A stretch of 51,874 nucleotides of DNA from a virus. Taxonomy: Duplodnaviria; Caudoviricetes. Shown here piece after piece: positions 40,737 through 51,874 of the stretch. The stretch spans positions 1 through 51,874 of IMG/VR virus record IMGVR_UViG_3300032373_001207. The stretch is one strand, 5' to 3'. Position numbers and translations under genes: made by a program. The number at the start of each line of letters is the position of its first letter. Positions within the stretch are counted from its first letter, which is position 1. The notes beneath the pieces are model-generated. The model saw only the letters and a list, made by a program, of their open reading frames with translations. It was not told where the DNA came from and made no database searches.

Positions 40737-40991
40737 TTACTTCTTCAGCCGGACTCCAGGCCCTTCTCCGTTCTCGTCGATGAAAATCACCCCGGCTGTT
40801 TCAAGGGCGGTGATTATACGGCTAATGTTTTCATATGTGCCACGTAGCGGCCCTTCGCCACCTTCCAACCTCTTTACTGTTGGGATAGAAATATCTGCCG
40901 CTGTTGCCAAGGTATTTTGGTCCCATTTAATCATAGCTCGTGCAGCTCGAAGCTGTGCGGAAGTGATCTGTGCGGACATTTTTTGATCCAT
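40737..40991 (-). CDS. XRE-family HTH regulator
   Basis: ITSAQLRAARAMIKWDQNTLA...TVKRLE...LETAGVIFIDENGEGPGVRL. Confidence 0.92.
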   Translation of the reverse strand: MDQKMSAQITSAQLRAARAMIKWDQNTLATAADISIPTVKRLEGGEGPLRGTYENISRIITALETAGVIFIDENGEGPGVRLKK

Positions 40992-41077: not shown

Positions 41078-41284
41078 ATGGCAATGCAAGATAGGATCAT
41101 GGGGCACGTCGAAAATATCGTTCAGGTGGATTTCAGAGAGCCGCCTAAAGCCTGGAACCTTCGGGAGGTTGTCAGAAAACGCGGCATACCTAGAGGGCAG
41201 GGCGTTAACCGTCCTGATGTTGTTACATCAATCCGTCGACTTTCTAACGACAACGCCCCCATGCGAGAATTTATCAAAGGCTAA
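41078..41284 (+). CDS. Small protein, paralogue of 49849..50046
   Basis: AAGGAG RBS; NIVQVDFRE.PKAWNLR..VRKRGIPRGQGVNRPDVVTSI. Confidence 0.75.
   Translation: MAMQDRIMGHVENIVQVDFREPPKAWNLREVVRKRGIPRGQGVNRPDVVTSIRRLSNDNAPMREFIKG
41114..41234 (+). repeat. 121-bp direct repeat, copy 1 (copy 2 at 49876-49996)
   Basis: 13 differences in 121 nt by manual alignment. Confidence 0.92.
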
Positions 41285-41736: not shown

Positions 41737-44700
41737 ATGGCCGACCAACCCTTAAAGCTTGTTTCTGATGCGGAGTTCTTTGGTGAGCCCCAGCAACAAG
41801 AGATCACAAAGCCAACAGGGTTTCTCTCCGATGAAGAGTTTTTTGGTGAAAGGGTTAGTCCTAGCGGTCCAGTAGAACAAGACTCCAGCTTTACAGGCAG
41901 CGTGGCGCGTGGCGTCGATCTAGCCCAGGGCATGGGATACAGCTTCATTGAGGCCAGCGGCGAAGCAATGGGCTCTGATACCCTGAAGGATTTCGGCAAA
42001 GAGGGCCGCGAGCGCAACATGGTCGAGATGGGGCAGAACCCCCGTACCCAGAATTTCAAAGACATTGGAAGCTTTGGGGACGCTGTTGATTGGGCCAAAG
42101 AAACGGCTGGCGAACAGGCCGCCATGATGGCCCCGAGCATGGCGGGCGGTATTGGTGGTGCGGCCCTTGGCGCAGCAACCCCAATTCCCGGTGGTGCTGT
42201 AATCGGCGGCATCATCGGTGCCGTTGTGCCGTCATTTATCCTTGGCACTGGCGAAACCCAGATGGCCATTAAAGAAAAAGACCCCAATGCAGAAGCTCCG
42301 GGTATGGCATTTCTTGGTGGTTCGGCTATTGCGGCCCTTGATTCCGTGCTGCCGGGTAAACTTGGCTCGTATGTGGTTAAGGCCTATGGCAGGGAAACGG
42401 CTGAAGCAATTGTCCGGGAAGCCCTCAAAAAGCGTCTGGTCAAAGAAATCCCCAAGGGCATGGCGCTTGAAGGCGTTACCGAAGCCGTACAGGAAGCCAT
42501 CAGCGAGGCCGCTGCGGCGCATGGTACAGGGCAAGAGATTGACTGGAGTGGCCTACAAGACCAGATGATCGAGGCCGGAGCGGCAGGTGCCCTTATGGGC
42601 GGCGGTGCAACCGGTGCAACCGAGGTGGGCACTGCGATTATGCAGGGAAACCAAGCACCCACAGAACAAGACTTAGAAGACCAGATCAACGCTGAACGCG
42701 CCAAGAATATCGACGAGGGCGTGCGCGTTCTCAGCGGTGAAGAGGTGCAGGCTGCTCCGGACGTTTCTCCTCCGTTGAGTACGGCACAGCCCCTGGAGGA
42801 CGGGTTGCCCAACTCCGCGCCTCTAGGGGCAACCATGCCCGAGGGAACTGGCGAGCGCCACGCCCCCGTGAAGGCCGAGGTCCCCGTCGATGTGGACCTT
42901 GCCGCCACCCAAGCCAATACCGCCCCCTCTGACGCCCAGAAGGAAGCCGGGAACTACAAGAAGGGCCACGTAAAGGTACAAGGCCTGGACATCGCCATCG
43001 AAAACCCCAAGGGTTCCGTGCGTTCTGGTTCCGACGAAGACGGGAAAGCTTGGGAAACGGTCATGCGTTCCCATTACGGCTACATCAAAACGGCTGAAGG
43101 TGCGGATGGCGATAAGGTCGACGTGTTCATCAACACCGCCACCAATGGCATTGGCGAAACCGCTTTTGTTGTGGACCAGGTGGTGGGTGGCCAGTTCGAT
43201 GAGCATAAGGTGGTTCTGGGGGCCGAGAGCATTGCGGATGCCAAAGCTATCTACAGTGAGAACTATGCACCTGACTGGGATGGTATTGGTGCCGTCACCC
43301 CCATGCACATGGATGACTTCAAGACCTGGCTGAAGGATGGCAACACCAAGAAGCCCGTCGCATGGACCGCGCCGCTCGATGACCAACTCCCCGCCGATAT
43401 GCAGCCGGTTTCACGTGAAACAAATCAAGAACAAACGCCAGCCTTCAACGTTGATGCGCACTATGGCGCCGCCGTTGCCTTTGCTAAGGCCCAGGGCAAG
43501 AAGTTGACCCCATTGTTCCTGTCCAAGGCCCTTGGTGTGACCGGCAAAGAGGCTCGTGCCTTGTTGGACATCCTGGCCGCCCGTGGCGTCATTCGCAAAT
43601 CTAAGGACAAAGGCACCTATAGCCGCATTCCGGTGCGCAAGGGGCCTGTGGACGTGCTGACGTATATTGCTGACCGTGGTGGCCTGCGTGACGATGAGGG
43701 GCATGACCTGAAGAAGGGACGGGGCGGACAGCGCTTTATCCCCGGTGTTGGTCCCCTAATCCGCTCCAGTGGCCACGGTGTGGACGCTTTGGGCGAAATG
43801 CTCCATGAGGACGGTTACTTCGGCCCCTTGGACACGACGCCGCGCCCGACCGAGGCCCAGGTCCTGGAAGTGCTCGACCGCGCCCTGAGTGGCGAAAAGG
43901 TCTACATCCCCGAAGAAGCCCATCTCCCCGGCGAGACCCGCGCGGCAGAAGAAAGCAAGGCCGGCGAGGCTGAGGTGCGCACCCGCGTGTCCGAGCTTGA
44001 GCTGGACCTGAATGATGGCGAAGTCTCGTATGTTGCGGGCTGGGTTGGTCAGGGCATGTCCCTGGATGACGCCATCGCTGCCACCATCGAGCAGCGCACC
44101 GGGAAGTGGGCAGAAGCCCAAAACCCCACATTTGAAGACGAAGTGATCGACATTCCGTGGGATGAAATCATGCTCACGGAACCTGCTGACTTAGAGGCGG
44201 GAATCCGCTATACTGCCCCCAGGGTTGCGGAGCAGAGCTTCGATGCCCCATTTGCAAAGGTGACGAACGATGAACCGCGAACAGCGCCTCAAGATGGCCA
44301 GCCAGACCAGGACCGCCCTGGAGAAGCACGGGCACAAGATCGACCCGAAGGATCAGGCCGAGGGGCTGAGGCACGCCCGGAACCTGGAGAAACTGGCCGA
44401 GCACCTGCCGGACAAGAAAACCCAGGCTTAGCCACCGCTCAAACCGATCAAGCCCCCGCCGATACCGCGGGGGTTTCTGATTCTGTGTCAAAGACACCAA
44501 AGACGACACATGAACTCAATGCAGCTCGTGACCGCGTCTATCGCCCAGACAAGAAGCTTTATGGGTATTCAAGTGTAGACCTCTCAACCAATTACACCAT
44601 GGAAGAGCTCAACCAATTGAGACTTTCTGTAGAGACTGACCCCGCAAATCAGGAAGACACAGGGCTGTATCTATACACAAAACCAGCACGCTCAAAGTTG

Positions 44701-47700
44701 GACAAAATTGCTTGGGCCGTGCGCTACAAAATGGAAGAAAAGCGTAAGGCCGCTAAAGCTACCACCGAGACCGTCACCAACGTGGCTGGCGCGACCGAGC
44801 AGGGCGTTATCCCCGGTGCTGAGAAGATCAGCGACAAGGAACTGGCCGAGCGCAAGATGGCCGAGAAGAAGAAGTCCGATGTCACGCAGAAGGATGCTGG
44901 TTCGGATGGCGGCCTCTTCGACACCGGCGCGCGCGATCAGGGCGACTTGCTGGATGTCGCAGCCAAACCCGTTGTTTCTCATAAAACGGAAAATATTGAC
45001 GACAAACCCAAGGCCAAGAATCCGAACGGCACCGACTTGCTGGGCGATAAGGCCAAAATCACCGACAAGGGTGTGGAGATGTATGCCGCTGCCATGCCGA
45101 GGGGGGCTGCATACACCCAGTTGGTTGCCGACCAGAACCATTTTTCGAGTGAAGTAGATGACGCACTTGCGGGAAAGCGTAAGGGCTCTCGCGCTTTTCT
45201 TACCGTCGGGGAAACACCCCTGATCCTTAATCGTCTTGGCGTTAAACGCAAAAAACTGATGATGCGGGCCTCAAAGCCGCAGGAGATTTTGGACACCCAC
45301 GACGGCATGACCATCGACCTGATCAAACGGGCGCCGACCCTGATAAGCGATCCGGTTATGGTCATGAAGTCAGGCAGCCGTGGCAATCCCCATGCGTTGG
45401 TTGCCGTGCTGAATGAAGTGGATGCAAACGGTGAATTGCTGGTGGCCGTGGTGACGCCAGCCACTGGGCGGGTGCAGGTGGATACTTTCAGTAGCGCATA
45501 TGGAAAGACCACCAATCCGCAAAGGTTCATTGATGACGCGGTGGCGCAAAAAAGAGTGCGGTATTACAACGAAGAAATGGCGCTTAACCACCCCGGCATC
45601 ACTGGGGTCCAATTCCCCAGGTGGGGGGCGGTTAAGCGCCACATTCCAAATGTACTCTCACACGACGATTTCGTCAAGGCACGCGCGCAAAAGCCCGATG
45701 TTTACAGTGTTCTTGGTGAGTATTCGTGGAAGGATTCTGTGGACCGCAAGAAGCTGGTTGAGCAGATTATTGCCATTCATAAACGCATCGCACCGAAGAC
45801 GGACATCGAAGTCGTTGAACAACTCTTTGGCAATATAGAGGGTCGGGGCCTCGAAGAGGTTGGCGGCGTCTACAGTCCGGGGAAAAACCTTGTTCGTGTT
45901 GCGGTCGATTTTGGCAATGCCGAGGCGCTTGTTCGTCATGAGGACATCCATGCCCTGCGCGATATGGGGATGTTCACCAAAACCGAATGGAACATTTTGT
46001 CGCAAAAGGCCAGAAGGCAGTGGATCGAAGATTACAAAATTGATGTTCGGTACCCTAAGCACTCGAAGGAGAAGGCTGCCGAAGAGGCTATTGGTGATGC
46101 GTTCGCAGATTACATGACCGGAGATGCACGGTTTTCGCCCGTTATTCGCCGTATCTTCGACAAGATCAAACAATTCTTTGAACGCCTGGGGAACCTTCTG
46201 AACGGGCAGGGCTATCAGAGCGTTGAAGACATATTCGACCGCGTTGAGCGCGGTGACGTCGGAAAGCGGCAGGCCAACCATGATACGGATGCAACAAGTT
46301 CAATTGACGACCTGTATAGCGTTGACGAAGACCCTATCTCAGAGCTGGCATCGTCCAAAGACTTCGCCGAGCGCGCGGCAGAGACCCTGCAAACCCCGGA
46401 GCAGAAGCAAGGGGCGCTGAAGACTGCCCTGGATGGGGTGAGGGATTTCGTTACATCACCGGCCATCCCCCATGCCAAGGACTTGAACTGGTTCCAGAAG
46501 GCCATGGTCCACCCCCGCATGATCGCGGAGATGTTCCCAAAATTCACGCCGGTATGGTTAGCGGCCGAGAAGCAGTTCAAGCGCCGGGACACCATCAACG
46601 CCGAACTGACCAGCATCATGGAGCCTTACCACGCCCTGGAGCTCGACAGCAAAGCGCGTGTGCATGCGGTGCTGGAGCTTGGGCGTTTGCAAGGAGAAGT
46701 TATCGACAGCAAAAACGTGGGCCTCACCAACACGTGGGGCGATACGGATATGTCGAAGCTGGGCGAACGGATCAACCTGACCGAAGACGAGTCCAAGGCC
46801 TATCACGCCGTGCGCAAGACCATGGATAGGGTTCTCCAGCTTTACACGAAGCAGGTGCTTAACGAATGGGGATATGACCAGAAGGACAGCCCCAAGACGT
46901 CCGCAGAACTAGAGGCCCTATCCAAGGAGCTTTATGAAAAGGCCAAAGATGCTGAGAGCCATGAAGAGGCTAAGGACCTAAACCGCGAAGGCGACACAGC
47001 TAAGGAAGCCGCCAAGATCATCGGCGAAATTGAGGCCGCAAAGGCAACGGGATATGTGCCATTCAGTCGTTTTGGAGACGTTGGTATAACGGTGCGCGAC
47101 AAGGGTAATTCTGTGGTGCATTTCGAGAAGATCGAAGTGGGCGGAGCCGTTGGCCGTCTGGTCAACCGCAAGAAGGTCCAGGATGTGCGCCGTCGCTTAA
47201 TGGAGCAATACCCTAAATCCAAAGGCTACGCTGTTGGGAACGCGCAACAGATGACCAACGCCGCCGACATGGCAGCGGCAGGCCTCAAGATCGGAGACAT
47301 TGATGCGCTGGCGGATATCGCAGGCATTGAAGATTCAGAGTGGGCCGGAACGCGGGAGAAGCTGAACAAAGCCACCATGAAGGCTGGCTTTCGTAAGCAC
47401 TTCATTGGTTCCAAAAAAACAGCAGGGTACTCCACGGATTTTGAGCGCTCTCTTGCGGATTCAATTACCAGCGTCAGTTCCTATCTTGCGCGCCGCGAAG
47501 TGCGTGAAGAGATGGAGCAGGCGCAGGCGCAGCTCGCTTCACCTCAGAACAAACAAACGAACCTTTATGAGTATGCCAAAACCTATGGAGACTACGTTCA
47601 GTCCCCTGGTGAGAGTTTGCAGTGGTTCCGGAGTTTGAATTTTTTCTATTATCTGTCGGGAAATGTCAGCAGCGCCGTGGTCAACCTGACACAGGTGGGG

Positions 47701-49188
47701 CTGGCGACCGCTCCATACTTGACGCAGTTTACATCGGCTCGGCGCGTTTCTATGGAACTGGCCCGTGCCTATAAGGACGTCGGCAAAATGGCTTGGCGCA
47801 AGCCGAACATGGATGGTGGCGCGATGGAATTCTTCGATCCATCCAAGGCACCGGCAGACGTAAAAGAAGATCTGCAAAGAGCTTGGGATGACGGCACCCT
47901 GGTTCCGTTGGTGACATTGGAGCAAATGGGCGTGGCGCACGGCCGGGAGAAATTCCGTCGCGGCATTGGCAAAGGATCTCAGGCCGCCGTGGAGTTTGCT
48001 GGATCGCTGTTCACCGGTGCAGAACGGGCCAACAGGCTGGTGACCTTCATCGCCGCCCACCGGCTTGCTCGGCAGAAGGGTTTCATGTTCAAGGTGAACG
48101 AGGTGCTGAAGGATAATGGCCTATGGCAGCACCAGGCCAAGGATATGAACCCAGGGAACTTCGCCGAGTGGGCAATCGACGAAACACATTTTGTAATGGG
48201 AAAACGTAACCGGCCGACACTATTTCGCGGTGTCGGTACGGCGGTCTTTCAGTTCAGGGGCTTCTCCGTTCAATACTTGGAGCTGATGTGGCGCATGGCC
48301 AGTCAGAACGGGGCGGAGGGCAAGCGGGCGTTTGCCATGCTCTTGGGTGGGCTGGTCGCGTCCGCTGGCGTGTGGGGGCTGCCGTTTGGAGATGACCTGA
48401 AGGACGTGATTGAGCAGCTTTATGCCTTCGCCACAGATCGAGAAATCGACTTAGAAGCCGAACTGCGCGAAGCGATCTATGACACAAGTGGGTCTGCGCT
48501 CCTGGCCGAGGCCGTTAACCGCGGCCCAATGCGCATGGTGGGTGCCGATATGTCTCATCGCATTGGTATGGGGTCCGTCCTGCCGATGAACACCTTCATG
48601 GGGCTTATGGGGGTCCAAACACGTCAAGGTGGCGAGGTCATGGGGGTTGGCTGGGATATGACGGTCGGGCGCGTTAAGCGGATCGTCGATCATTTGAAGA
48701 ACGATCAACTGGCAATGGCAGGATCAGAGGCCTTGCCGGCCTTCGCTAAAAACCCTGTGCAATCCATCTTGTGGAGCACGGACGGGGTTCGGTCGCGCGG
48801 GACGGGACGGGCGCAAATTCCGGAAAATAAAATCACCGATATGGACGTGGCGCTGAAGTGGTTTGGGTTTACGCCGGTTCATATCACGAGGGAACGCGAA
48901 GTCGAGTGGGCTAAAATCCGCTCCACCAGAGCGGTAACAAACCTACAGGCGCGCTTTTACACGAAGATGGTCCGGTCGATTGTCGAGGGTGATAAAGACG
49001 GCGTGGCGGCGCTCTTTGCTGAAATAAAGGACTACAACGCGGACAAGCCGTTTCATAAGCAGATACGTCTCAGTCGAACATACCTCAATCGACTTGTTCG
49101 CCTAGAAGTGAGTGGATACGAGGGCCGAAAGCTGCCGAGAAAGGCCCGTCCGCATGGGGCAAAGCTTGATCAGGTGTACCCGAATTGA
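41737..49188 (+). CDS. Large polyvalent virion/ejection protein (inorganic pyrophosphatase-like, MuF-C/PBECR-like, HExxH metallopeptidase-like, PLxRFG-like regions)
   Basis: GNYKKGHV...ENPKGSVRSG...HYGYI...GADGDKVDVF; ISDPVMVMKS...SAYGK; VRHEDIHAL; YVPFSRFG. Confidence 0.85.
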   Translation: MADQPLKLVSDAEFFGEPQQQEITKPTGFLSDEEFFGERVSPSGPVEQDSSFTGSVARGVDLAQGMGYSFIEASGEAMGSDTLKDFGKEGRERNMVEMGQNPRTQNFKDIGSFGDAVDWAKETAGEQAAMMAPSMAGGIGGAALGAATPIPGGAVIGGIIGAVVPSFILGTGETQMAIKEKDPNAEAPGMAFLGGSAIAALDSVLPGKLGSYVVKAYGRETAEAIVREALKKRLVKEIPKGMALEGVTEAVQEAISEAAAAHGTGQEIDWSGLQDQMIEAGAAGALMGGGATGATEVGTAIMQGNQAPTEQDLEDQINAERAKNIDEGVRVLSGEEVQAAPDVSPPLSTAQPLEDGLPNSAPLGATMPEGTGERHAPVKAEVPVDVDLAATQANTAPSDAQKEAGNYKKGHVKVQGLDIAIENPKGSVRSGSDEDGKAWETVMRSHYGYIKTAEGADGDKVDVFINTATNGIGETAFVVDQVVGGQFDEHKVVLGAESIADAKAIYSENYAPDWDGIGAVTPMHMDDFKTWLKDGNTKKPVAWTAPLDDQLPADMQPVSRETNQEQTPAFNVDAHYGAAVAFAKAQGKKLTPLFLSKALGVTGKEARALLDILAARGVIRKSKDKGTYSRIPVRKGPVDVLTYIADRGGLRDDEGHDLKKGRGGQRFIPGVGPLIRSSGHGVDALGEMLHEDGYFGPLDTTPRPTEAQVLEVLDRALSGEKVYIPEEAHLPGETRAAEESKAGEAEVRTRVSELELDLNDGEVSYVAGWVGQGMSLDDAIAATIEQRTGKWAEAQNPTFEDEVIDIPWDEIMLTEPADLEAGIRYTAPRVAEQSFDAPFAKVTNDEPRTAPQDGQPDQDRPGEARAQDRPEGSGRGAEARPEPGETGRAPAGQENPGLATAQTDQAPADTAGVSDSVSKTPKTTHELNAARDRVYRPDKKLYGYSSVDLSTNYTMEELNQLRLSVETDPANQEDTGLYLYTKPARSKLDKIAWAVRYKMEEKRKAAKATTETVTNVAGATEQGVIPGAEKISDKELAERKMAEKKKSDVTQKDAGSDGGLFDTGARDQGDLLDVAAKPVVSHKTENIDDKPKAKNPNGTDLLGDKAKITDKGVEMYAAAMPRGAAYTQLVADQNHFSSEVDDALAGKRKGSRAFLTVGETPLILNRLGVKRKKLMMRASKPQEILDTHDGMTIDLIKRAPTLISDPVMVMKSGSRGNPHALVAVLNEVDANGELLVAVVTPATGRVQVDTFSSAYGKTTNPQRFIDDAVAQKRVRYYNEEMALNHPGITGVQFPRWGAVKRHIPNVLSHDDFVKARAQKPDVYSVLGEYSWKDSVDRKKLVEQIIAIHKRIAPKTDIEVVEQLFGNIEGRGLEEVGGVYSPGKNLVRVAVDFGNAEALVRHEDIHALRDMGMFTKTEWNILSQKARRQWIEDYKIDVRYPKHSKEKAAEEAIGDAFADYMTGDARFSPVIRRIFDKIKQFFERLGNLLNGQGYQSVEDIFDRVERGDVGKRQANHDTDATSSIDDLYSVDEDPISELASSKDFAERAAETLQTPEQKQGALKTALDGVRDFVTSPAIPHAKDLNWFQKAMVHPRMIAEMFPKFTPVWLAAEKQFKRRDTINAELTSIMEPYHALELDSKARVHAVLELGRLQGEVIDSKNVGLTNTWGDTDMSKLGERINLTEDESKAYHAVRKTMDRVLQLYTKQVLNEWGYDQKDSPKTSAELEALSKELYEKAKDAESHEEAKDLNREGDTAKEAAKIIGEIEAAKATGYVPFSRFGDVGITVRDKGNSVVHFEKIEVGGAVGRLVNRKKVQDVRRRLMEQYPKSKGYAVGNAQQMTNAADMAAAGLKIGDIDALADIAGIEDSEWAGTREKLNKATMKAGFRKHFIGSKKTAGYSTDFERSLADSITSVSSYLARREVREEMEQAQAQLASPQNKQTNLYEYAKTYGDYVQSPGESLQWFRSLNFFYYLSGNVSSAVVNLTQVGLATAPYLTQFTSARRVSMELARAYKDVGKMAWRKPNMDGGAMEFFDPSKAPADVKEDLQRAWDDGTLVPLVTLEQMGVAHGREKFRRGIGKGSQAAVEFAGSLFTGAERANRLVTFIAAHRLARQKGFMFKVNEVLKDNGLWQHQAKDMNPGNFAEWAIDETHFVMGKRNRPTLFRGVGTAVFQFRGFSVQYLELMWRMASQNGAEGKRAFAMLLGGLVASAGVWGLPFGDDLKDVIEQLYAFATDREIDLEAELREAIYDTSGSALLAEAVNRGPMRMVGADMSHRIGMGSVLPMNTFMGLMGVQTRQGGEVMGVGWDMTVGRVKRIVDHLKNDQLAMAGSEALPAFAKNPVQSILWSTDGVRSRGTGRAQIPENKITDMDVALKWFGFTPVHITREREVEWAKIRSTRAVTNLQARFYTKMVRSIVEGDKDGVAALFAEIKDYNADKPFHKQIRLSRTYLNRLVRLEVSGYEGRKLPRKARPHGAKLDQVYPN
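44186..44214 (+). promoter_or_regulatory. Internal sigma70-type promoter for the nested ORF
   Basis: CTGACT-17-TATACT. Confidence 0.55.
44270..44431 (+). CDS. Nested 53-aa ORF in the +1 frame of the giant gene (not in ORF track)
   Basis: AAGGTG RBS; MNREQRLKMASQTRTALEKHGHKIDPKDQAEGLRHARNLEKLAEHLPDKKTQA; promoter upstream and hairpin downstream. Confidence 0.6.
   Translation: MNREQRLKMASQTRTALEKHGHKIDPKDQAEGLRHARNLEKLAEHLPDKKTQA
44450..44478 (+). terminator. Terminator-like hairpin after the nested ORF
   Basis: AAGCCCCCGC-7nt-GCGGGGGTTT; weak U tract. Confidence 0.5.
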
Positions 49189-49245
49189 TGGATTGCCGAT
49201 TAATCGCTAAGGTAGCGTCGTGAGATTGTTGGCGCGGGGGGTAAA

Positions 49246-49602
49246 ATGATGAATTGCAGATCAATAGGGGCCGTAGTTTTGGTGGTGATGGTTTTGTTTC
49301 CAGCAACCGCAAGCACTACTGAGTGGGACTATGGGAGCACAGGAAGGCTGGCTCAGGCATGCACTCGTTCCAATGATGTTTGGGCTGGATATTGCAGAGG
49401 TATGATAATTGGCGTTGCATCAATTATGTCAGCCAATGCTCAAGTTGAGCCTCGTCCGCCATATTTTGCGTGCGTTGGAAATGACGATGTATCAGAGATA
49501 ATAAATAAGTTTGTTTCGTGGTCTAAGGATGGGCAGAAAGATTTATCGGAAGACGCACCGATAGGGCTTATTCGGTTCCTCAGGGCCACGTATCCTTGTT
49601 AA
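49246..49602 (+). CDS. Rap1a/Tai-like secreted immunity protein
   Basis: Signal peptide; TGRLAQAC...YCRGMIIGV...C...LRATYPC cysteine pattern. Confidence 0.78.
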   Translation: MMNCRSIGAVVLVVMVLFPATASTTEWDYGSTGRLAQACTRSNDVWAGYCRGMIIGVASIMSANAQVEPRPPYFACVGNDDVSEIINKFVSWSKDGQKDLSEDAPIGLIRFLRATYPC

Positions 49603-49604
49603 TT

Positions 49605-49745
49605 TTATTTACTTTTTTCAACGTGTTGGACCAAGATGCGTTCGATGTAATTGGCTAGCGTGCGGCCATCTTTCTCCGCCAACTGTTCAAGCTTTTCTTT
49701 GAGTTCCGGTTCAACTCGGATTCCAATTGCCGCAGATCGGGCCAT
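49605..49745 (-). CDS. 46-aa ribbon-helix-helix (Arc/CopG-like) regulator (not in ORF track)
   Basis: GGAG RBS; MARSAAIGIRVEPELKEKLEQLAEKDGRTLANYIERILVQHVEKSK. Confidence 0.88.
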   Translation of the reverse strand: MARSAAIGIRVEPELKEKLEQLAEKDGRTLANYIERILVQHVEKSK

Positions 49746-49762
49746 GTCTTCACTCCGTTAAC

Positions 49763-49828
49763 ATTGTTTGCAGATAGTTGTTGACAACAAACAACAACAG
49801 CATCACTCTATACACATCTGCAAACAAT
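49763..49828 (+). promoter_or_regulatory. Promoter of the RAMP operon flanked by a perfect 13-bp inverted repeat
   Basis: TTGACA (49781)-17-CACTCT; ATTGTTTGCAGAT 49763-49775 and ATCTGCAAACAAT 49816-49828. Confidence 0.7.
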
Positions 49829-49848
49829 TGCAACACGGAGCAATCGAA

Positions 49849-50046
49849 ATGCGCACCTATAAAAGTACGGACTCAAACATCGTCCAGGTGGATTTCAGAG
49901 AGAAGCCCAAAGCCTGGAATCTTCGGGACGAAGTCAGAAAGCGCGGCATACCTAGAGGGCAGGGCGTTAACCGTCCTGACGTGGTTACCTCAATCCTCAG
50001 GGGTGTGAACGAAAACGCACTTGTCCGTGGGGTGACCCATGGCTAA
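49849..50046 (+). CDS. Small protein, paralogue of 41078..41284
   Basis: GGAG RBS before MRTYKS; overlaps the RAMP start by 8 nt. Confidence 0.75.
   Translation: MRTYKSTDSNIVQVDFREKPKAWNLRDEVRKRGIPRGQGVNRPDVVTSILRGVNENALVRGVTHG
49876..49996 (+). repeat. 121-bp direct repeat, copy 2
   Basis: Matches 41114-41234. Confidence 0.92.
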
Positions 50047-50635
50047 GGCCGCAACGGAAAAGGTCGACCTACCAGCCCTGAACATCCAGGGCTTTGAATT
50101 GACGCTGGTCGGGGATAGCCCCCTGATTTGCCATGCTTGGTCGAAGAAGGCCAAAGAGATGATGCTGGCGAAGCAGATGAAAAAACCCGCAACCGCAAAG
50201 GTGGCGAAGGACCCGGAGCAGGATTACCAAGACAGCCTCTATCCGCACCCTGAGGGCGGCTACGGTTTTCCCGCAGTGGCGTTTAAATCAGCAGCAGTCA
50301 GTGCCTGTCGGGCGCTCGATAAAAGCATCACCATGGTCCAGGCGCGCGGCGCGTTCCACGTTATAGGTGAGTTGGTGAAAATCGACGGCGATCCGCGGCC
50401 CCGCGAAGATATGGTGCGGATTGGCATGGGCACCGCAGATATCAGGTTCCGGGGAGAGTTTCCAGTTTGGAATACCACATTCTTGGTGCGCTACAACGCT
50501 AACGTTCTAACGGCCGAGCAAATTATAAATCTGTTCAACCACGCCGGATTCCACGTCGGCGTGGGCGAGAACAGGCCCGAAAAGTCCGGCAACGGCTTTG
50601 GCATGTTCCACGTCGCTATTGAAGGGGAGGCGTGA
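50039..50635 (+). CDS. Stand-alone RAMP/Cas7-like RNA-binding protein
   Basis: LTLVGDSPLICH (like Csm3 beta1/SPLHIG), GFPAVAFKSAAVSA (like IPGSSLKGALRS), C-terminal Gly-rich loop GVGENRPEKSGNGFGMF. Confidence 0.75.
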   Translation: MAKAATEKVDLPALNIQGFELTLVGDSPLICHAWSKKAKEMMLAKQMKKPATAKVAKDPEQDYQDSLYPHPEGGYGFPAVAFKSAAVSACRALDKSITMVQARGAFHVIGELVKIDGDPRPREDMVRIGMGTADIRFRGEFPVWNTTFLVRYNANVLTAEQIINLFNHAGFHVGVGENRPEKSGNGFGMFHVAIEGEA

Positions 50636-51123
50636 TCATGACGGATAAAATCTATTCCTGGAAAGATGGCGCCATCATCAAGGCAGATGCCCAGAAGGTT
50701 GGCGAACGCCTTGAGTGGCTGGAAAAACGCCACAATGGGCTGTTATCCGCAGAAGCGGTATTAAACGACGCCAAGAAAAAAACGTCACCCTTGAACAAAG
50801 CGTTCGAGTGGGATGACACGGAAGCCGCACAGCAATATCGCTTGGAGCAGGCGCGGGCCTTGATGCGGATGATCACGGTGGAAATCCGACAGGTTAAGAC
50901 CAAGACACATAAGCCGGTCAGGGCCTACGTGAATGTACGGCGTGCAGACGACAAGGGATACGCGCCGGTCGCTCAAGTCATGAATGACACCGAATTGCGG
51001 GAGCAAGTCCTGCAGCGGGCATGGCGTGAACTGCAAAACTGGCGGGACCGCTACCGCGAATACGAAGAACTGATTGAGATATTCACCGCCATCGAGCAAA
51101 CGGCGGACAAGATCAGCGCTTAA
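50632..51123 (+). CDS. Partner protein of the RAMP gene, function unknown
   Basis: GTGA overlap with RAMP stop; SPLNKAFEWDDTEAAQQYRLEQAR. Confidence 0.8.
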   Translation: MIMTDKIYSWKDGAIIKADAQKVGERLEWLEKRHNGLLSAEAVLNDAKKKTSPLNKAFEWDDTEAAQQYRLEQARALMRMITVEIRQVKTKTHKPVRAYVNVRRADDKGYAPVAQVMNDTELREQVLQRAWRELQNWRDRYREYEELIEIFTAIEQTADKISA

Positions 51124-51136
51124 GGATTGGGTTACG

Positions 51137-51278
51137 CCGAGAGTTCCTTACAACCTCGGGGCCGGAAACGGCAGCAAGGCAGGCGAGGCAAGGTGAGGTA
51201 TGGCGAGGTCTGTCGAGGAGCGGCGAGGCCTGGCAAGTCGAGGCTAACAGGGGCAGTTCTTCGGAGCTGCCCTTTTTT
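51137..51278 (+). ncRNA. Putative guide RNA with 12 GGY-NN pentamers, two 5' hairpins and a 3' terminator
   Basis: From 51182: GGCGA GGCAA GGTGA GGTAT GGCGA GGTCT GTCGA GGAGC GGCGA GGCCT GGCAA GTCGA GGC; hairpins 51137-51159 and GCCG-GAAA-CGGC 51161-51172; 5' end uncertain. Confidence 0.75.
51249..51278 (+). terminator. Intrinsic terminator
   Basis: AGGGGCAGTTC-TTCG-GAGCTGCCCTT-TTTT. Confidence 0.88.
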
Positions 51279-51298
51279 ATTGAAGATGGAGCGGCAAG

Positions 51299-51874
51299 AT
51301 GAAGGTTTATGACCTGATTGAAGATATCGTACGTCGGGAAGGTGGTTTCTCCGCTGACCCGAAAGACCGCGCGCATTATGGCAAAGCGAAAGATCATCAC
51401 AAATGGGATTGCTATTGCACCAACATGGGCATCACCCAGGCTACGCTTTCCGACTATTTCGGCCGTCAAGCCACGCAAGACGAGGTCCGCAGCCTGGAAC
51501 CGGCTCTGGCGCATGAGATTTACGAGAGCCGATATGTGACGGGTCCACGCTTTCACACCATGCCGGATATGATTGTTGAGGCGCTCGTCGACGGCGGAGT
51601 CCATTCAGGGCCACGTCGGTCGGCCCGGTGGCTCCAGGAAGTCCTCAACATGGCCGGATATGGCCTTCTATCTACAGATGGGGCCATTGGCCCGTCCACG
51701 CGCTCAGCAGCCACTACAGCGGCGGAAGAGATGGGTCCGTGGTTGGTGAACGCGCTTATTGAGCAAAGGAGACAGTTTTTGCTGGCATTGATCGCCGCAG
51801 ACCCCACGCAGCAGCGCTTTCACGATGGGTGGATGGCGCGGCTTAATAGTTTGGAAGTGGAGACGGACACATGA
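51299..51874 (+). CDS. Endolysin, glycoside hydrolase family 108 with peptidoglycan-binding domain
   Basis: REGGF..DPKD; TNMGITQATL; DGGVHSG; DGAIGPST; RFHDGWMAR. Confidence 0.92.
   Translation: MKVYDLIEDIVRREGGFSADPKDRAHYGKAKDHHKWDCYCTNMGITQATLSDYFGRQATQDEVRSLEPALAHEIYESRYVTGPRFHTMPDMIVEALVDGGVHSGPRRSARWLQEVLNMAGYGLLSTDGAIGPSTRSAATTAAEEMGPWLVNALIEQRRQFLLALIAADPTQQRFHDGWMARLNSLEVETDT

Follow-up and report, generated by a model that had tools for sequence, protein, structure and literature searches.

A probable single guide RNA of a VIPR system in a provirus, predicted to silence the giant gene of related phages

We propose that a period-5 repeat near the right end of a provirus record, analysed here over its full 51,874 nucleotides (the window), is the single guide RNA (vrRNA) of a VIPR system and is predicted to silence the giant gene of related phages; we put the probability of this reading at about 0.8. 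That the tract and its neighbouring genes belong to the VIPR class as such is close to certain. VIPR systems, published in 2026, consist of vipr, vap and vrRNAs with 9-16 repeats in which GGY triplets and NN dinucleotides alternate (10.64898/2026.04.26.720920). The vrRNAs anneal to double-stranded DNA, leaving one base unread in each unit, and transcription is repressed; NN has been demonstrated experimentally to set specificity (10.64898/2026.04.26.720920). The window holds the same elements in the order vipr, vap-like gene, leader, tract and terminator. A stand-alone small RAMP protein outside any CRISPR context carries the thumb and G-loop residues and Vipr homology and fold, an overlapping accessory gene recurs at Vipr loci, the adjacent 13-unit tract combines conserved triplets with hypervariable NN, and these NN bases find a wobble-skipping match in a giant gene.

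The guide tract (51182..51246, plus strand) was delimited by pattern scan, by alignment to its closest relative and by target matching. At exact 5-nt spacing (51182-51244) it comprises ten GGY, two GTC and one GGA triplet, with G first in 13/13; five values (GA, AA, AT, CT and GC) account for the 12 dinucleotides that separate them, and a sixth, TA, follows the last triplet. On recount, the tract stands as the preliminary description had it, with its 13 triplets, their composition, the five NN values, an off-register GGCA and two hairpins. It is the one such tract in the window: nothing on the minus strand scores above 5/13, and among 100 windows simulated with a first-order Markov model the highest score was 7/13 GGY, versus 10/13 in the real sequence. 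The argument that a 5-nt period is incompatible with codon structure holds for the guide, which is non-coding; it does not extend to the target, which is read in a 3-nt codon register. In Rfam scans, no family reached gathering score anywhere in the window, no ribozyme appeared in 51050-51320 even at E<=10, and neither scan placed a hammerhead ribozyme beside the guide.

The vipr gene (50039..50635, plus strand) encodes 198 amino acids with a RAMP (Cas7/Csm3-like) fold, as judged from a profile match, an AlphaFold model and fold searches. The protein has no Pfam family and has 2894 homologues among 2997 candidates. Its sequence is distant from that of type II SUSP1 Vipr (36pp_D; single-sequence E=0.053); a profile of 80 homologues matches the same chain at E=3.1e-10, the only PDB match below 0.001. 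The model (pLDDT 92) has Csm3/Cmr RAMPs as its top structural matches in two fold searches, the best with Z 11.1 and rmsd 3.9 over 149 aligned residues. The thumb/G-loop region aligns with that of SUSP1 Vipr, pairing R138 with R138, D177 with E177 and R179 with R179, and R138, E177 and R179 are each invariant in 80/80 homologues; these positions correspond to GGY contacts named in the accessible part of the SUSP1 Vipr structure paper (10.64898/2026.04.26.720927). Unlike SUSP1 Vipr, in which W178 stacks on G2, the protein has Asn at residue 178 (50570-50572), a position held by W in 70/80 homologues and by N in 5/80, namely this protein and its four nearest homologues. Homologues about 42% identical occur in cultured Mycobacterium and Gordonia phages (H1-H32, H37-H64), and the partner gene is also present in those Mycobacterium phages.

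This vap-like partner gene (50632..51123, plus strand; 161-163 amino acids; PHROG 15946) overlaps the vipr stop codon, and a homologue accompanies vipr at 45 of the 49 Vipr loci. Its product had no Pfam match above cut-off and matched unnamed Atlas clusters only; Foldseek gave nothing at E<=0.001 beyond weak winged-helix rows, and VIA-align gave coiled-coil noise only. A comparison of the gene with 50,697 phage records did not recover SUSP1, and it does not resemble the gene next to vipr in LESphi2, a phage whose own type is only inferred. The record itself represents a provirus at 87% completeness. It has genes for terminase, portal, capsid and replication, and no cas1 was found in it; near the locus there is no repeat-spacer array. 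Its right end runs from the giant gene through a Rap1a-like ORF, a divergent ribbon-helix-helix (RHH) repressor and a short ORF to vipr, and onward through the partner ORF, leader, tract and terminator to a glycosyl hydrolase 108 endolysin. The Rap1a-like immunity ORF (49246-49602), with a probable signal peptide, thus separates the giant gene from the VIPR cassette; the closest relative has a different small membrane-like ORF at this position. A 122-nt segment encoding the same short peptide occurs twice at 89% identity (49874-49995 and 41113-41234), each copy just downstream of a divergent small repressor (RHH, 49605-49745; HTH, 40737-40991); one copy leads into vipr and the other into a ParB-like ORF. 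Judging from this duplicated segment, two moron-like cassettes flank the giant gene.

Comparison with related loci separates a constant from a variable part of the repeat. The closest locus (L001, in provirus G001) has a Vipr that is 83% identical and 13 units in gapless register, of which triplets agree at 32/39 positions versus 7/26 for NN. The preliminary description had placed the information in NN, and this comparison bears it out, as does the fact that NN read with a one-base skip gives the best matches in both phage records. It had also held that the tract is not a slippage microsatellite, a view that agrees with the confinement of variation between the two loci to NN. GGY/NN tracts (score >=6) were present at 43 of 49 IMG/VR Vipr loci, in every case on the strand that carries vipr; the opposite strand had none. 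Across 1121 internal units from 115 unique tracts, entropy was 0.25, 0.69 and 1.18 bits at the triplet positions versus 1.90 and 1.95 bits at NN; because GGY was the basis on which tracts were picked, the triplet values contain some circularity, and near-identical loci whose tracts differed at all were counted separately. Across the family, GTY and GGA are frequent as minority triplets. In the nearest relatives of this Vipr, the guides form arrays in which successive units share one base at GGCA|G. Seven loci (L005-L010 and L012) stand apart from the rest: their arrays are low in complexity, with GGC as the sole triplet and a small set of NN values. Both phages are represented in one sequencing run: contigs from run X1, which is possibly the source of the window, match 46500-49971 of the window and 1-4146 of L001 with zero differences (3.5 and 4.1 kb) and split at the tract start. 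A second run, X2, was set aside because its coverage was too little.

How might a single guide be delimited within its transcript? The tract starts 58 nt behind the partner gene, and no sigma-70 promoter was found between the two. The intervening leader folds into two hairpins on the plus strand. The first (51137..51159) extends the CCGAG/CTCGG stem noted earlier to eight pairs with one bulge and a 6-nt loop; the second (51161..51172) has a four-pair stem capped by a GAAA tetraloop and is identical in L001. Together they give z=-2.23, with 6/200 shuffles equally good, and the 54-nt leader as a whole is unremarkable against its shuffles (z=-0.31). Leader identity between the window and L001 is 57/58, the sole difference sitting in the loop of hairpin 1, and that of the adjoining partner gene is 213/300. 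The 12 leader pairs are invariant in two sequences only, so there is no covariation. Searches of viral and metagenome collections found the leader pattern only in G001 and its parent contig, so that the clade comparison amounts to two distinct guides. An alignment of equivalent tracts had been expected to reveal conserved GGY and hairpins with divergent NN; the expectation is borne out for triplets and NN, and the hairpins, kept in L001, were not found elsewhere among the 49 loci examined. Their suggested function as processing or loading handles is thus putative and draws on conservation in two sequences. An HDV-like ribozyme layout was tried on the leader, and the by-eye fit failed.

The family-wide motif is the GGCA boundary, not the hairpins. 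GGCA (51178-51181) sits one base off the tract register, and the boundary motif GGCA|G (51178..51182, plus strand), found through the family tract survey, overlaps the first guide unit by one base. In related loci, GGCA lies upstream of the tract in 93/115 unique tracts and GGCAG is the last unit in 98/115, its final G being the first base of the next unit. On the other side, an intrinsic terminator (51249..51279, plus strand) closes the vipr-vap-vrRNA unit, with 11 pairs at 51249-51274 followed by a T run (z=-5.43), and begins three bases past the tract; the preliminary description ended short of it and omitted the two upstream genes. Relative to L001 the terminator has one compensatory and one one-sided change. 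Its 5' arm (51247-51256) keeps the register of the repeat, unit 15 being GGCAG here and GGCGG in L001, and the terminator may double as the family's terminal unit. The GGCA|G boundary likely marks the 5' end of the mature guide, and the terminator would provide its 3' end.

What, then, does the guide recognize? The predicted target family is that of the giant gene (41737..49188, plus strand), which encodes 2483 amino acids with InPase and MuF_C domains according to domain searches; its homologues carry the name PLxRFG domain-containing protein, and its position together with PHROG labels suggests that the product is probably a virion or ejected protein. The 26 NN bases were read by the published 1-nt-skip rule and compared with dinucleotide and base permutations (n=1000 each), the lead having been noticed by eye before these tests. 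The best site of the window guide in G001 (57 kb) lies in the giant gene and matches 21/26 bases (81%), a score reached by 4/1000 dinucleotide-permuted and 0/1000 base-permuted guides. The corresponding site also matches 21/26 in G002 (L059-L060), a 29.9-kb linear record that has the same giant-gene sites as G001 and ends before the VIPR locus. Conversely, the best window site of the L001 guide (47629..47666, minus strand) matches 21/26 in the giant gene, with 0/1000 permuted guides as good under both nulls. One mismatch there is a serine codon-family swap (gene TCG, guide AG), which is a synonymous escape that the wobble skip cannot cover. Each guide fits its own phage less well. The window guide's near-match in its own giant gene (48436..48473, plus strand), orthologous to the G001/G002 site, has 19/26 and is not significant alone (236 and 29 of 1000 permuted guides); the L001 guide likewise scores 19/26 at its own orthologous site (31 and 34 of 1000). 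The four best sites of two guides in two phages thus share a gene and a codon register in which the skipped base is the wobble position, and the reciprocal best sites occupy different positions on opposite strands. Identity between the two giant genes is 0.77, 0.86 and 0.45 at the three codon positions. Skips of 0, 2 or 3 gave at most 18/26, a trivial skip-3 self-match aside.

We took a natural non-self target to show at least 80% NN identity in wobble alignment, and the reciprocal matches lie just above this threshold; they exceed the self matches by just 2/26 bases. One of 54 unrelated guides also reached at least 80% against the window (18/22), which makes the threshold alone weak. Twelve more distant orthologues scored 14-19 at the site of the window guide and 10-18 at that of the L001 guide, and no vipr was found in their fetched DNA. 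GTDB contained no close giant-gene relative. Taken together, these matches make the giant gene family the probable target; that G001 itself is the selected target we regard as rather doubtful.

The strongest alternative refines the main reading. In this version the guide would be directed at an unsampled third member of the phage family, and the reciprocal 21/26 pairs would be a by-product of aiming at conserved parts of the gene; we hold this at slightly under even odds. IMG/VR contained no exact target for the full 13 units, for units 1-10 or 3-12, or for units 1-11 of L001, and since no perfect target was found, the true one may be such a third relative. The window guide mismatches G001 at units 8, 11 and 13, toward its 3' end, where SUSP1 assembly appears to begin according to the accessible part of the structural study (10.64898/2026.04.26.720927). 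Units 11 and 13 of the window guide mismatch either known allele, as do units 12 and 13 of the L001 guide, and these recurring 3' mismatches suggest a third or older allele; unit 13, mismatched in all four candidate sites, may instead be part of the tail. Moreover, run X1 contains low-depth contigs of at least one further giant-gene relative, and more close orthologues are known as proteins (P0122, P0124 and P0125). Against a third member stands the ceiling that amino-acid sequence imposes: of the 62 homologous proteins, not one would allow more than 22/26 at the site of the window guide, and at L001's site the window's own protein is the highest, at 24/26.

A target outside the gene family, in a satellite, the host or another element, with the giant-gene matches arising by chance, is improbable. 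It would fit the published SUSP1 guides, which aim at satellites, and the window guide, being GA-rich, is well suited to acidic coding sequence. In the permutation tests, the top window match fell in the giant gene in wobble frame for 129 and 60 of 1000 guides. Yet it needs two independent coincidences in the same gene, at about 0.004 and below 0.001, and the only exact 22-base match in 185,579 GTDB genomes, in a spirochaete histidine kinase gene, is at chance level and was rejected as a target. Still less likely is self-regulation, in which partial pairing would let the guide damp the late giant gene of its own phage. The best self site of either phage does lie in that gene, at a distance of 3-4 kb from the guide, but identity there is 73%, five or six units contain mismatches, and either guide scores higher on the other phage. 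Moreover, the P. fulva clade and types III and V showed no self matches of at least 80% (10.64898/2026.04.26.720920). Finally, a degenerate microsatellite or non-functional relic, which would accord with the period-10 repeat that Tandem Repeats Finder calls in part of the tract and with the 3/13 triplets that are not GGY, is very unlikely: the L001 comparison and the family survey largely refute it, with both genes intact, leader and terminator conserved, and the deviating triplet types common in the family.

Having weighed these alternatives, we return to the preferred reading, a VIPR guide aimed at related phages' giant gene, and ask how it compares with known systems. As in published VIPR, the locus comprises two genes in a provirus, an approximately 20-kDa RAMP and 13 units (range 9-16) with hypervariable NN; the guide performs best with a 1-nt skip on the wobble base, on either strand, and its self match is below 80%. 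Compared by description, type II VIPR (SUSP1, P. fulva) has an invariant, structured 3' tail per guide and vap1, whereas the present locus places a two-hairpin leader 5' of its one guide and a terminator hairpin directly 3'. The predicted target also differs: published guides are aimed at a satellite, a lysogeny regulator or vipr, and this one at the giant, virion-type gene carried by sister phages. Single-vrRNA and staggered architectures have both been mentioned (10.64898/2026.04.26.720920). In staggered arrays several vrRNAs overlap by 1 nt (fig. S18 legend, 10.64898/2026.04.26.720920), whereas here one tract has kept the boundary; GGCAG, a string not found in the text or supplement of that paper, is presumably the boundary in fig. 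S18, whose legend gives no sequence. Unlike in hammerhead-interspersed VIPR arrays, no ribozyme of that kind was found next to this guide. With Class 1 CRISPR-Cas, in which Cas7/Csm3 assembles on crRNA, the system shares the RAMP fold and a predicted filament on guide RNA; it differs in lacking cas1 and a neighbouring repeat-spacer array and in its discontinuous code. Satellite targeting, wobble alignment and guides that fit relatives better than self are described in the available portion of a further report, where the better-than-self guides are vrRNA-targeting ones (10.64898/2026.10.15.759431), and another, likewise accessible in part, recovered 99 period-5 clusters (10.64898/2026.10.21.760802).

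We envision a scenario in which the vipr-vap-vrRNA unit, by analogy with SUSP1 and P. fulva, would be transcribed as far as the terminator, and the transcript would be cut at the GGCA|G boundary. If the protein behaves as SUSP1 Vipr does, one subunit per GGY unit would polymerise on the guide, and each NN would pair with two DNA bases while the third is skipped. Binding may then block transcription without cutting, as in SUSP1 and P. fulva. Located in the 3' part of the giant late gene of a rival sister phage, such a block might spoil the rival's particles. The phage's own copy, which differs at 7/26 read bases, would escape, and under the wobble skip an escape by synonymous change would be impossible for the rival. 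A bolder version, which we consider possible though unlikely, is that two sister proviruses from one microbial-mat run each aim their only guide at the other's giant gene, their own alleles having drifted out of reach, and that they do so with an Asn-178 VIPR variant whose array has been replaced by one guide released by a two-hairpin leader.

The architecture first noted is what defines a class of systems already described in 2026, and its discovery value is therefore low. The local additions are the reciprocal pair, the predicted giant-gene target, the two-hairpin leader and N178; a literature search found no paper joining VIPR with PLxRFG or a large polyvalent protein. The pair bears on the origin of new guides and on the processing that releases a lone guide from an operon transcript, two questions to which the accessible parts of the VIPR literature gave no answer. 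The cultured Mycobacterium and Gordonia phages offer tractable models for this Vipr clade. The two proviruses, with near-identical scaffolds and wholly reprogrammed NN, each fitting the other phage's structural gene better, form a minimal natural test pair, and their four natural guide-target combinations (21, 21, 19 and 19 of 26) would make mismatch tolerance and self-avoidance measurable.
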